From an uncultured Nitrososphaerota archaeon (GTDB lineage: Archaea; Thermoproteota; EX4484-205; JAAOZO01), in the NCBI GenBank assembly GCA_964408285.1, contig CAYOYV010000016.1, positions 1 to 35,988 of the forward strand: a DNA stretch of 35,988 nucleotides, written 5' to 3'. Below, piece after piece: positions 2 through 14,174 of this stretch (its first letter is position 1; the number at the start of each line of letters is the position of its first letter). The position numbers and the translations under genes are program-made. Under the pieces are notes generated by a model, which was not told the origin of the DNA, made no database searches, and saw only the letters and a program-made list of their open reading frames with translations.

Positions 2-1813
2 CCGATGGCTGAGGTCCCTTTCAAGATAATTGTGCTGGATGAATGTGACTCGATGTGTTTGCCTCCAGGAACACAGGTGATAATTGGAAGTCCGAAGAGC
101 AATCGGATAGCAACGACTCCTATTGAACGGCTTAATGAAAACCGTTGGAGGGTGATGCCATCCGTTAACCTAGAAACGGGTGAAATCGAAGATGATCACG
201 GTTTGCTTGTCGATTCGGGCTATGCGGAGTTCTACAAGATTACTCTAGAAAACGCCGAGAGTGTTGTGGCTAGTCCTGAACACCCGTTTTTTGTGATGAA
301 GAACGCAGAGCTAAATGCAGTGAGACTCAAGGAGCTAAAGGTCGGAGACGAAATCGTAGACTATTCTGACAAGATTATGAGAAAGTGTGAAATCTGTTCT
401 AAACGAACTCTAAACGAAAGATTTTGTTCGAGAGCATGTGCGAATAAGGGGCATTCCTTAGATATGGAAGAAAAGCGCAATCCTATGTTTGGAAAGAGAT
501 TTGGCCTTGAACATAGACTAAAACTCTCTAAAGGCATAAGAAGAGCCATCCGTCTCGGAATTCTCAAAAATCCTAATCTAAAACCAGAAGTGAGAACGAA
601 AAAGAGTCTCATAATGAAAAGATTGTGGGAAGACCCGACTGTAAGGAATAGACTGCTGAAAGGTAGCACAATCATGAAGACAAAATACAAAGGAAAATCA
701 GATATGCAAATAATGGGTTTTGAAAGGGCGGAAAGGAAAAGGCTGTTAGCGAGTTCTACCTATCGAGAAAACGGGATTTTTCTGGATAGCCGTTACAGGA
801 GATATGTGCCGAAAACTAAATGGACGAAATGCCAAGTTTGCGACAAGAAAACTGAAACCCATGGTTCTGACGGGATCTATGTCCATCATATAGATGGAAA
901 CCCCCTTAATAACAAAATAGAGAACATCGTGTTGATTTGTCCAAGATGTCATAATATCCTACATGATGTTGCTACAAGAAGTTGGTCAGATGAAAGGAGG
1001 CGTGAATGGAGTGACGAACTGAAACACAGATATAGTGAACGAAAGAGATTAGAGCTTCCATTCAAGTTAGGTGCTCCGATCATCGACCCCGTAAAGGTCA
1101 CTGAAATTGAATATGTAGGAAGAGGCAAGGCGTGGAACGTAAGGATGAGGAAGAATCCCTGCTTTATTCTAGGCAACGGAATAATAACTCATAACACTGA
1201 CGAGGCCCAACAGGCCCTCAGGAGAACGATGGAGAGATTCTCTGTAAACACCAGATTCATCTTGATAGCAAACGAACTCTACAAGATAATAGAACCAATC
1301 CAATCACGTTGCTCGGTGTTCAGATTTGGTCCATTGCCTGACAGAATAATAGCAGACAGGATAAAGGAGATTGCGAAGAAGGAGGGCGTTCAGTATGAGG
1401 AAGAAGCAATGAATCTGATGGTCGACAGGGCTTATGGAGATATGAGGATGGCAATTAACTTGGCCCAAGGAGCGGCTGCTGAGAACAAGAAGATAGACCT
1501 GAAGAATGTCAGGCAATTCCTCGGAGCATATGGCCTGGACAGGATAGACGATATGTTCGAGAAGGCCGTCTCCGGTGATTTCAATGGAGCAATCGGTATC
1601 CTTGACAAATTGCTTTATGATTCAGGTGTTCCGCCAAGGGAGATAGCTAGGAAGATCCAGAAGAGAACCTACGATTTGAATGCCAGCCCTGAGAGGAAGA
1701 TGGATCTACTTTCAGTATTGGCAGAGGTGGAATATAGGTTGACTGTCGGAGCAGATCCGGAAATACAGTTCTCCCTCTTCCTGGCAAAACTCTCTGAGAC
1801 GCCGAAGAGGTAG
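2..1813 (+). CDS. rfcS: Replication factor C small subunit, intein-containing, 5'-partial (frame open at window edge)
   Basis: Extein reads PFKIIVLDECDSM|TDEAQQALRRTME (Walker B region), then RFILIAN..KIIEPIQSRC (SRC motif) and GDMRMAIN (sensor 2). Walker A is absent, so the N-terminus lies upstream of the window. Confidence 0.96.
   Translation, partial: PMAEVPFKIIVLDECDSMCLPPGTQVIIGSPKSNRIATTPIERLNENRWRVMPSVNLETGEIEDDHGLLVDSGYAEFYKITLENAESVVASPEHPFFVMKNAELNAVRLKELKVGDEIVDYSDKIMRKCEICSKRTLNERFCSRACANKGHSLDMEEKRNPMFGKRFGLEHRLKLSKGIRRAIRLGILKNPNLKPEVRTKKSLIMKRLWEDPTVRNRLLKGSTIMKTKYKGKSDMQIMGFERAERKRLLASSTYRENGIFLDSRYRRYVPKTKWTKCQVCDKKTETHGSDGIYVHHIDGNPLNNKIENIVLICPRCHNILHDVATRSWSDERRREWSDELKHRYSERKRLELPFKLGAPIIDPVKVTEIEYVGRGKAWNVRMRKNPCFILGNGIITHNTDEAQQALRRTMERFSVNTRFILIANELYKIIEPIQSRCSVFRFGPLPDRIIADRIKEIAKKEGVQYEEEAMNLMVDRAYGDMRMAINLAQGAAAENKKIDLKNVRQFLGAYGLDRIDDMFEKAVSGDFNGAIGILDKLLYDSGVPPREIARKIQKRTYDLNASPERKMDLLSVLAEVEYRLTVGADPEIQFSLFLAKLSETPKR
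56..1195 (+). mobile_element. Intein (380 aa) with central HNH homing endonuclease, inserted in rfcS just after Walker B
   Basis: Starts CLPPGT (block A), has SPEHPF (block B) and LKVGDEI, ends GNGIITHN followed by Thr (+1 nucleophile). Removing it restores DECDSMTDEAQQALRR. Central part has CQVC..VHHIDGNPLNNKIENIVLICPRCHNILH (HNH). Confidence 0.93.
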
Positions 1814-11776: not shown

Positions 11777-12487
11777 ATGAGTTGCATTCGCATGCCCCAA
11801 GATGATGCGAAAGGGGATACAGGAAGGGTCCAAGGGCGATCTCTACATTCGGCTCTGAAGACCGCATATAGCGCTCCAGGAGACAGGCTTGAGGCAATGG
11901 TTGAGGGCTACTTGGTTGACATCGCCCGGGGCGAATTGCTCATCGAAATCCAGACACAAAACTTCGCTGCATTGAAGGAGAAGCTCGTCAGCCTACTGAG
12001 GAATCATGAAGTGCGGGTTGTCTTGCCAATATCCATCGAGAAATGGATCATCATGTTGGCGATTGACAAGCGTACGTTCATCCGCAAGCGAAGGTCTCCG
12101 AAGCGAGGAAGGAAAGAGGATGTCTTTCGCGAGTTGGTGAGTTTCCCTGAACTGGTCCGCAATCCGAGATTTTCATTAGAGCTTGTTATGATAAGAGAGG
12201 AGGAGCTTCGATATAGGACTCCACCCAGGGGAAGATTCCGGAAGAGCTGGAGCACGCTTGACCGCCGTCTGATTGGAATTTCAGATCGGATCTTGTTCAG
12301 ATCTCCTGAGGACTTCCTATCCTTGCTCCCTCAGACAATCAAATCGCCCTTCATAACGCGGGATCTCGCGAGGGCGCTGAATCTTCCAGTCGGACTCGCT
12401 CAGAAGATGGTCTACTGCCTTCGTGGCATGGGTGTCATCGGGATGGTGGGAAGGAAGGCGAAATCCAGACTGTACGCGCGACTATAG
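11777..12487 (+). CDS. Uncharacterised protein with PD-(D/E)XK nuclease-like motifs and C-terminal wHTH
   Basis: SLHSALK, E..VEGYLVDI....LIEIQT, RRSPKRG; C-terminal FITRDLARALNLPVGLAQKMVYCLRGMG HTH. Start may be ATG 11792. Confidence 0.6.
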   Translation: MSCIRMPQDDAKGDTGRVQGRSLHSALKTAYSAPGDRLEAMVEGYLVDIARGELLIEIQTQNFAALKEKLVSLLRNHEVRVVLPISIEKWIIMLAIDKRTFIRKRRSPKRGRKEDVFRELVSFPELVRNPRFSLELVMIREEELRYRTPPRGRFRKSWSTLDRRLIGISDRILFRSPEDFLSLLPQTIKSPFITRDLARALNLPVGLAQKMVYCLRGMGVIGMVGRKAKSRLYARL

Positions 12488-12550
12488 CGATATAGCCGCG
12501 AAATGAAGGTATTGCGGAATGTTTTTAGAGGATGATGGGGAAGGGCGGAT

Positions 12551-12799
12551 ATGGTCTCAATCAAGCTTAGGGTCGAAGGAGCCAAGTCGGAACTCTTGGA
12601 TGAACTGGAATCATTTCTAAGGAGGAAGGTGAGCAAGGACCTGAGCAGAAGTGACAAGGTGTTTGAGTTCCCAAATAGCGTGAAACGCGGCGATGTGGTA
12701 GATGCAGTCAGATGGTTTTCCGCAAAGAAAGTGAGGCAGGTGAAGTTACAGAGAATTCTGTCCAAGGACGAGATAGTCCTGAAGAAGATTGGAGATTAG
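12551..12799 (+). CDS. Small basic protein, putative eL22 (L22e)-like ribosomal protein
   Basis: 82 aa, Lys/Arg rich; LESFLRRKV, LSRSDKVF and SKDEIVLK line up by eye with eL22 segments FEQFLQERI, IERSKSKI and SKESYELR. CDS is likely; identity is tentative. Confidence 0.5.
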   Translation: MVSIKLRVEGAKSELLDELESFLRRKVSKDLSRSDKVFEFPNSVKRGDVVDAVRWFSAKKVRQVKLQRILSKDEIVLKKIGD

Positions 12800-12824: not shown

Positions 12825-14174
12825 TCAGAATAGGAAGGTCTTGGCATTCTCTCTGCCGCCCAGTTCGCCGGCGAAGTTGTGAAGCATAAGCCTCCTGACA
12901 TCCTCAAGGGCGAAGTTATGTCCAAGAAGCCAGCCGAGCTTCACGTATGCCGTCTCGGCAAGCATATCCTCCAAGTAGACTACCCCCAACTTCAGGATGA
13001 TCCTGGCATTCCTGTACACATACGGGTCAACACGGCCATAGATGCATTGGGAGGCCATTCCTACGAATGCACCTTCAGCTAGTGCACGTTCTATTGATTT
13101 CAGCCAAGATGCTTTCTCATCCACCGTCTGGGTCGGAACATGACCCAAACCAGAGCCCAGTATTATGAACCCCCTATAGCCCTTGTCCAGCAAGAAATCC
13201 AAGAGCTCCGGGTTTGAGTTCGGGTAGGCATACAGCATCGCGGTTTTCTCCTCAAAGGATCCATCGAGCCAAGGATTCTCTTGGGCCCTCGGTTTGACTG
13301 CCTGCTGTAGCATCTCAAGGCGTCCATCCTTGAAGATTCTGGCTACCGGAAGGTCATTTATTGGCCGGAATGCGTTCCTCACGGAGGTGTGCATCTTTCT
13401 CACCTTGGTGCCCCTCAGGACCAGGGCATAATCATCTGAGGAGGAACCATGGAAGCATATCGCAACTATTGAACACGGTAGTTTTGAGGCAGCGTAAGCA
13501 GAGGCTAGGAGATTAAGATCCGCATCCCTGGAGCCTCTGTCAGGCGATCGTTGCGCACCTGTCAGAATCACGGGCGCATTCAGGCCTCTGATCATGAATG
13601 AGAGGGCAGCGGATGTGAAGTGCATCGTATCAGTTCCATGAAGGACGATCACGCCTGCATCCCCCTCAGAGAGAGAGGCTATGACCTTGGAGGCAACCTG
13701 GGCCCATTGGCTCGGCGCCAAGTCCTCTGAAGCCAGCGAGAAGATCCTCTCTGCCTTCCTTATCCTGACGATATCGCCCAACTCCGGGACGCCGAATAAG
13801 ATCTCCTCTGGTGAGAAGAGCATTGCGACTCCTCCCGTGACATAGTCCACCCTAGCGCTTATGGTTCCCCCCGTGGAGAGGATTGTGATGGGCGGAAGAT
13901 CCTTCCTCTGCTCCCTGGTCTCAAGGGAGGGGAATCTCTCGAACTCCGTCTTCCCACTCAGCCTCCTCAAGCCCTCTATTTTGCTCAGCTCGAATCCAAT
14001 GTTGTAGCCATTGGGAAGTTTGATCAGAAGAACATCTGGATTTCCGAAATCCGTTTCCTCCCTTGGCAGTAGAAAGCCCTTGAATTTCCTATGTCCAACT
14101 GTGAACTCGACCTCATCTCCGATCGAAATCTGGCTCCTTTTCAGAAAGTCCTGGACGTTCTGTGAGTATGGCAT
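12825..14174 (-). CDS. gatD: Glu-tRNA(Gln) amidotransferase subunit D
   Basis: N-terminal IKLPNGYNIG domain, STGGTISARVDY.TG, HGTDTMHF, TGAQRSPDR, VRKMHTS.R; adjacent to gatE. Confidence 0.97.
   Translation of the reverse strand: MPYSQNVQDFLKRSQISIGDEVEFTVGHRKFKGFLLPREETDFGNPDVLLIKLPNGYNIGFELSKIEGLRRLSGKTEFERFPSLETREQRKDLPPITILSTGGTISARVDYVTGGVAMLFSPEEILFGVPELGDIVRIRKAERIFSLASEDLAPSQWAQVASKVIASLSEGDAGVIVLHGTDTMHFTSAALSFMIRGLNAPVILTGAQRSPDRGSRDADLNLLASAYAASKLPCSIVAICFHGSSSDDYALVLRGTKVRKMHTSVRNAFRPINDLPVARIFKDGRLEMLQQAVKPRAQENPWLDGSFEEKTAMLYAYPNSNPELLDFLLDKGYRGFIILGSGLGHVPTQTVDEKASWLKSIERALAEGAFVGMASQCIYGRVDPYVYRNARIILKLGVVYLEDMLAETAYVKLGWLLGHNFALEDVRRLMLHNFAGELGGRENAKTFLF

Follow-up and report, generated by a model that had tools for sequence, protein, structure and literature searches.

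Does a short reading frame in an uncultured archaeon encode the ribosomal protein eL22, one of the eukaryotic signature proteins by which eukaryotes are linked to the Asgard archaea? As far as the accessible text of five sources goes (PMC4571567, PMC8997704, bioRxiv 10.1101/2021.04.02.438162, PMC13734099 and PMC13228614), archaeal eL22 is restricted to Asgard. Within the same limits the literature searched held no report of eL22 in TACK archaea; supplementary ESP tables may list TACK matches. The frame lies in what we call the window, the whole stretch of 35,988 nucleotides analysed here (contig CAYOYV010000016.1 of assembly GCA_964408285.1). A first-pass annotation, made from the letters alone, had proposed that the frame encodes a diverged eL22 in an apparently TACK genome and that it would widen the distribution of this protein in archaea.

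The window is archaeal in its content. It carries an RFC gene with an intein, Cdc6/Orc1, GatD/GatE, Nop5, fibrillarin, Elp3 and a ThrRS editing domain of the archaeal type. Its GTDB class holds 26 genomes in four families and shares a phylum with the Bathyarchaeia. Depositors labelled members of two of these families, f3 and f4, 'Candidatus Brockarchaeota archaeon', and NCBI places the Brockarchaeota in the kingdom Thermoproteati (the TACK group), so genome taxonomy bears out the idea of a TACK host. The RFC small-subunit gene (5-1813, plus strand) matches Pfam Intein_splicing across residues 51-397 and also Rep_fac_C.

A conserved gene convergent with gatD

The features at this locus are as follows.

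11777-12487, plus strand: ORF of 236 aa
12412..12765, minus strand: antisense ORF of 117 aa
12522..12527, plus strand: TATA-like box TTTTTA, at -29 to -24 from the ATG of the eL22-like gene
12551..12799, plus strand: eL22-like coding sequence, an ATG-started ORF of 82 aa, stop codon included
12825..14174, minus strand: gatD, Glu-tRNA(Gln) amidotransferase subunit D (Pfam Asparaginase, Asparaginase_C and GatD_N), convergent with the eL22-like gene

The product is the 82-residue basic protein that had been described, with 20 K+R against 13 D+E, a net charge of +7 and a pI of 9.99. The three segments that had been likened to eL22, LESFLRRKV, LSRSDKVF and SKDEIVLK, are residues 19-27, 31-38 and 71-78, in the order claimed.

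Archaeal TATA boxes have their centre about 26 nt upstream of the transcription start. The box TTTTTA has the spacing expected if a leaderless mRNA were to begin at or beside the eL22-like ATG. An A/T run of at least 6 bases overlaps -32..-22 at 18 of 19 orthologous loci of the class, and the commonest box among them, present at most of the loci, is ATTTAAA at -29..-23. None of the 12 sequencing runs listed as having the window DNA is an RNA run. The orthologues of the gene are under strong purifying selection: over 26 equal-length pairs of genus-g6 orthologues, dN/dS has its median at 0.11 and does not exceed 0.23.

It might be argued that so short an ORF, overlapped by the antisense frame at 12412..12765, is a chance opening in the gap before gatD and not a gene. 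This would leave a conserved family of at least 59 members, with a match in 61 of the 401 genomes sampled across the phylum, to chance, together with a dN/dS of about 0.11 and a confident fold prediction. We consider the objection already refuted by the conservation and the substitution pattern, and its remaining probability is negligible. The ORF is a real gene with its own TATA-like promoter, single-copy and conserved across the class. The antisense frame covers most of it; dN/dS and conservation were measured on the plus frame.

Convergence with gatD-gatE is found in 18 of 19 class genomes, usually with an ECF-S-like membrane protein in front of the eL22-like gene. In the window a 199-aa membrane protein is followed by the 236-aa ORF, which has no Pfam or NCBIfam match. 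A tblastn search with this ORF among 67 loci matched only the window's own locus, which suggests an insertion in this genome alone. There is no ribosomal protein operon around the eL22-like gene, whose neighbours are gatD, the membrane protein and the unassigned ORF. The neighbours of Bathyarchaeia eL22 are DUF47/PhoU-like genes, purA, his genes or transporters, and gatD is absent from the flanks of about 1.5 kb around those loci. We reject a functional partnership with gatD, since the two genes run towards each other and their linkage does not extend beyond one small class.

Homology to eL22

It is important to realize how little a search with the single protein returns. The window protein has no match in Pfam, NCBIfam or the PDB sequences (phmmer) even at E<=10, and the ESM Atlas gave nothing usable; NCBIfam has no model that matches either this protein or the Bathyarchaeia form. 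Four relatives, each of 82 aa like the window protein and sharing 72-99% identity with it, came from a word-indexed search. When 1.84 billion representatives were searched exhaustively with phmmer, five matches reached E<=0.001, and two of them were kept (both 80 aa, at 55% and 41% identity). The other three, of 1072, 1063 and 445 aa, were rejected as spurious, being internally repetitive with 5-8 matched stretches each. The same kind of single-protein search found the gene in 5 of 41 related genomes, and one link of the window protein within its class is to the copy in genome G002 (41% identity, E 9e-13).

Profiles reach further. A profile from a 10-sequence alignment of the window family, A1, matched 59 proteins at E<=0.01. 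They are 45-112 aa long, none has a precomputed Pfam domain, and the databases call them 'hypothetical protein' of Thermoproteota, Brockarchaeota, 'Thaumarchaeota' or 'Crenarchaeota' archaea. When A1 was used to search for related loci it found only 2. A second profile of the window family, A2, was made from a 62-sequence alignment. Known eL22 did not seed A2, since the 59 database members are all without a precomputed Pfam domain. In this alignment M1, K26, R54 and W55 are invariant and F22, L23, F56 and R67 almost so.

Against 177,635 distinct PDB sequences, the sole match of A1 below E 0.1 is 5xy3_U (E 0.0013), a Trichomonas chain with the PDB name '60S ribosomal protein L22-1, putative'. 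A2 finds the same chain at E 7.8e-5 and 25.9 bits, pairing profile positions 13-72 with chain residues 33-94, and its second-best match is at E 0.78.

The Pfam model for eL22, PF01776 (Ribosomal_L22e, curated cut-off 23.6 bits), does not see this family directly. It has no match in the window's own genome (1.82 Mb in 46 contigs, 93.7% complete), none in the 25 other genomes of the class, and it matches only 2 of the 62 A2 members at E<=1, the best at 0.03. By direct match over the cut-off the window protein is therefore no member of PF01776, having matched no family at E<=10. But that cut-off is the operational criterion of one model and not a definition of common ancestry.

The bridge is provided by the Bathyarchaeia. 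We aligned 29 Bathyarchaeia-type proteins, taken from genes at places where PF01776 and A2 coincide, into a third profile, A3. All 29 match PF01776 at E<=0.01, the best at 1.9e-10. In the PDB, A3 matches 65 sequences at E<=0.001; of the best 60, 57 are named eL22, L22 or L22e and 3 are uninformatively named. Aligned to each other by hhalign, A2 and A3 give a probability of 98.5% and an E of 2.2e-15 over 78 columns, nearly the whole protein. In the window's class A3 matches the orthologous gene in 18 of 26 genomes (E 4e-12 to 3.5e-5), and in the window's own genome it matches nothing at E<=0.001. The window copy is thus tied to eL22 through its class relatives, because A3 misses the copy itself, PF01776 misses the class and only 2 of 62 members reach E<=1. 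It is the most diverged eL22 form among those compared.

The order of equivalences in the first-pass annotation agrees with both alignments, the one to Trichomonas eL22 and that of residues 4-81 to the Bathyarchaeia profile. Asking for a match to Ribosomal_L22e gave a divided answer: direct comparison with PF01776 failed, but profile-profile comparison with proteins that match PF01776 succeeded. The claim of a diverged eL22 is upheld by profile-to-sequence and profile-to-profile comparison, by the predicted fold and by the two profiles falling on the same genes. The window protein is homologous to eL22, and profile methods link it to accepted members of that family.

An AlphaFold2 model made on A2 has a mean pLDDT of 88.7 and a pTM of 0.77. 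Its predicted elements are:

5-9: strand beta1
13-26: helix alpha1
32-34: strand beta2
37-39: strand beta3
46-59: helix alpha2
65-70: strand beta4
74-80: strand beta5

This is the arrangement of eL22, two helices on an antiparallel sheet in the order beta-alpha-beta-beta-alpha-beta-beta, and the window protein is predicted to adopt the two-layer alpha/beta fold of eL22. Structure searches, which had been suggested as a check, put eL22 chains first with both Foldseek and VIA. The best Foldseek E against the PDB is 1.3e-3, with none at or below 0.001. Among its best 50 rows, 48 are chains of about 100 residues from 80S or pre-60S entries, with query-normalised TM of 0.54-0.74, and 33 of these 48 are named eL22 in the PDB listing obtained with A3; a designed protein and a pre-60S chain of 367 residues make up the rest. 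VIA-align over 48,161 representative chains places ribosomal chains in all of its best 10 positions, with Z of 7.7-9.2 and rmsd of 2.6-3.0 over 77-82 aligned residues. The highest, at Z 9.2, aligns 80 residues at an rmsd of 2.9, and seven of the ten are named eL22 in that same listing. The first unrelated rows are a designed protein at Z 7.6 and a BamA POTRA domain at Z 7.4. When the 991 best Foldseek chains were realigned, 81 had Z>=8. The best 50 entries listed are all ribosomes, at Z 8.6-9.5 with 79-82 of 82 residues aligned, and the top one aligns all 82 at an rmsd of 2.9. Residues 18-117 of the human chain correspond to the whole model (1-82), so that the human protein is longer by about 18 there, and this is consistent with the proposal that the eukaryotic loop insert is lacking.

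Could the likeness to eL22 have arisen without shared ancestry, by convergence on a widespread type of small alpha/beta sandwich that has a basic helix? The fold is simple, unrelated chains reach Z 7.4-7.6, Foldseek gives E values of only 1e-3 to 3e-2, and identity to the eukaryotic chains is just 7-18%. Because the sandwich is common the fold alone would not prove homology; fold and profile evidence together do. Convergence does not account for a full-length hhalign match (98.5%, E 2.2e-15) to proteins that pass the Pfam cut-off for eL22. Nor does it account for reciprocal genome searches in which A2 and PF01776/A3 reach the same genes, or for eL22 being the sole PDB sequence match below E 0.1 of two independent profiles, A1 and A2. 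We regard convergence as already disfavoured and very improbable.

The comparison with known eL22 proteins shows what has been kept and what has changed. Eukaryotic eL22 (RPL22, PF01776; 5xy3_U, 7o7y_BU, 4v8p_AM and 6zj3_Lj) has the same element order as the predicted fold (Z 8.6-9.5). It also shares small size, a basic/aromatic helix-2 motif, and profile similarity across helix 1, the hairpin, helix 2 and the last strands. The window protein differs in being about 18 residues shorter over the aligned core, in having no N-terminal extension and no acidic C-terminal end, and in escaping the Pfam model, with 7-18% identity in structural alignments. The Bathyarchaeia '60S ribosomal protein L22' (WGM90519.1 of Candidatus Bathyarchaeum tardum; MDI6905135.1) belongs to the same family by hhalign and to the same phylum, and links the window protein to the eL22 model of Pfam. 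Like the window gene it lies outside ribosomal protein operons, with one copy in most genomes. Bathyarchaeia eL22 is 86-96 aa long with an acidic Glu/Asp end, a helix-2 motif of the K-F-L-H-K type and a median pI of 6.63, about neutral. The version in the window's class is shorter, has no acidic C-terminal end and carries Trp in the helix-2 motif (R-W-F), and the pI of the window protein is 9.99. The Bathyarchaeia genes also differ in their surroundings, which hold no gatD, and in already being annotated, whereas the window subfamily is 'hypothetical protein'. Asgard eL22, compared here by its description in the accessible parts of the papers from Lokiarchaeum on (PMC4571567, PMC8997704, bioRxiv 10.1101/2021.04.02.438162), is likewise an archaeal homologue of a eukaryote-type ribosomal protein encoded outside the main ribosomal protein clusters.

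Distribution in the Thermoproteota

Our sample covered 401 genomes across the GTDB phylum Thermoproteota. A2 has a match in 61 of these and PF01776 in 44, 33 of which are over the curated cut-off. The two profiles largely find the same genes, since 34 of the 45 PF01776 places coincide with A2 places, including 29 of the 33 over the cut-off. Nine places in several further lineages are matched by A2 and missed by PF01776. There is one A2 place in the window's genome and one in every positive genome of its class. A single gene per genome and a gene tree that follows the organisms are what is expected of an orthologue, and both were found.

The tree has 60 rows, is unrooted and contains no Asgard or eukaryotic rows. 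One branch has the window's class on one side of it (support 90/86, present in 94% of bootstraps); families f1, f3 and f4 each form a group of their own. The stem that carries f1, the family of the window, is long, at 1.95 + 0.98 substitutions per site.

The gene is not in every member of the class. Neither A2 nor A3 matches the three genomes of genus g2 or genome G006, all of them 85-90% complete, and the eL22-like ORF is absent beside gatD in G001, which belongs to genus g2 (locus L069), and in G006 (L071). This is probably lineage-specific loss in genus g2 and in G006.

The forecast that the archaeal distribution of eL22 would be widened stands in part. A diverged, unannotated subfamily is present in this class, but in NCBI the relatives from Bathyarchaeia already bear the name '60S ribosomal protein L22'. 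A search with a Bathyarchaeia-type profile found 1870 proteins, and the best 120 of the 1870 are all Bathyarchaeia-type with PF01776. Thus eL22 in TACK archaea is known to the databases and not to the literature searched, and the Brockarchaeota-type subfamily is unannotated. The protein is clearly not confined to Asgard archaea and eukaryotes.

How it came to be where it is allows a more tentative statement, to which we give slightly less than even odds. eL22 would date back to an ancestor shared by TACK and Asgard archaea, with many losses since, rather than being an innovation of Asgard archaea and eukaryotes. It would survive in at least two Thermoproteota classes, the Bathyarchaeia and the Brockarchaeota-type class, and in several lineages that Pfam misses. 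The form in the Brockarchaeota-type class would be a remodelled one, very basic and without the tail, and a shift in where it docks on the 50S subunit may lie behind the remodelling.

Three eL22-like proteins from other families of Thermoproteota carry a C-terminal extension, a Pro-rich stretch followed by aromatic residues, and PF01776 matches at none of them:

L077, 1414-1743, minus strand: extended eL22-like protein
L081, 1417-1719, minus strand: extended eL22-like protein
L082, 1435-1731, minus strand: extended eL22-like protein

Genome G215 has the extended form together with a canonical copy of the Bathyarchaeia type (L061).

A probable ribosomal role and its rival

We believe that the ORF encodes a fast-evolving orthologue of the large-subunit ribosomal protein eL22 and put the probability of this at about 0.7. 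That the protein would be part of the ribosome we infer from its homology.

According to the portion of PMC13228614 that was accessible, yeast eL22 is small, globular and non-essential and lies near the tunnel exit. There it contacts the outer surface of 25S domain III between eL31, eL19 and eL38, and 60S subunits depend on it to mature efficiently, mostly in the cold. By analogy the window protein would bind the outer surface of 23S rRNA domain III, close to the tunnel exit on the solvent face of the 50S subunit. The rRNA contacts would be made by the strongly basic surface of the protein, which would aid the folding and stability of domain III during subunit assembly. It would be useful yet dispensable, a view that fits with its loss in some sister lineages and with the non-essential, cold-sensitive phenotype in yeast.

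All three neighbours, eL38, eL31 and eL19, are encoded in the window's genome with matches over their Pfam cut-offs. A predicted complex of the protein with the eL31 and eL38 of its own genome scored 0.10 against a mark of 0.32, in a run without controls. The eL38 model, PF01781, matches in the window's genome, in 3 of 3 genus-g2 genomes and in 25 of 25 genomes of family f15. In family f4 (genus g6, G008-G025) it matches 0 of 17 genomes, and 15 of these 17 have the A2 gene, so there is no co-occurrence with that ribosomal neighbour. Family f4 has either lost eL38 or has one too diverged for PF01781.

Median net charge is +8 in the window family and 0 in the Bathyarchaeia. The high positive charge and the missing acidic end suggest tighter or altered contact with RNA, and the long stem taken with the charge change could point to a different function. 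In animals eL22 also acts outside the ribosome. A descendant of eL22 might in the same way have left the ribosome in this class and been recruited to some other RNA- or protein-binding role. The very long stem of family f1 is what such recruitment would predict, as are the shift from about neutral to pI 10 with the acidic end gone and the failure of the Pfam model on 60 of 62 members at E<=1. Yet each positive genome of the class has one gene of the eL22 type and no canonical copy would be left for the ribosome. Selection is strongly purifying, and a small, very basic protein is just what is expected of a ribosomal protein that binds rRNA. The position of the gene outside a ribosomal protein cluster also speaks for recruitment, but the eL22 genes of the Bathyarchaeia are scattered likewise. 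The adjacency to gatD-gatE, kept in 18 of 19 genomes, counts in the same direction, but convergent neighbours are not co-transcribed, and the adjacency is more simply read as inherited gene order in a class of 26 genomes. That eL38 goes undetected in family f4 (0 of 17) is a further point for recruitment. On balance we think recruitment unlikely, and favour a diverged eL22 that would still serve the ribosome.

Homologues of eL22 are common in the Bathyarchaeia, and a much more diverged subfamily exists in the Brockarchaeota-type class. If these proteins are bound to ribosomes, the 'eukaryote-like' archaeal ribosome would be older and more widespread than the literature holds, and eL22 would count for less as a marker specific to Asgard archaea.

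A better annotation model for these genes could be built from the family alignment. Some eL22-type proteins carry the JGI name 'ATP phosphoribosyltransferase regulatory subunit HisZ' or 'beta-phosphoglucomutase-like phosphatase'; the proteins so named are P0037, P0039, P0050, P0052 and P0053, and P0170, P0176 and P0180. On eL22-type proteins of about 80-113 aa, these names look like annotation errors.
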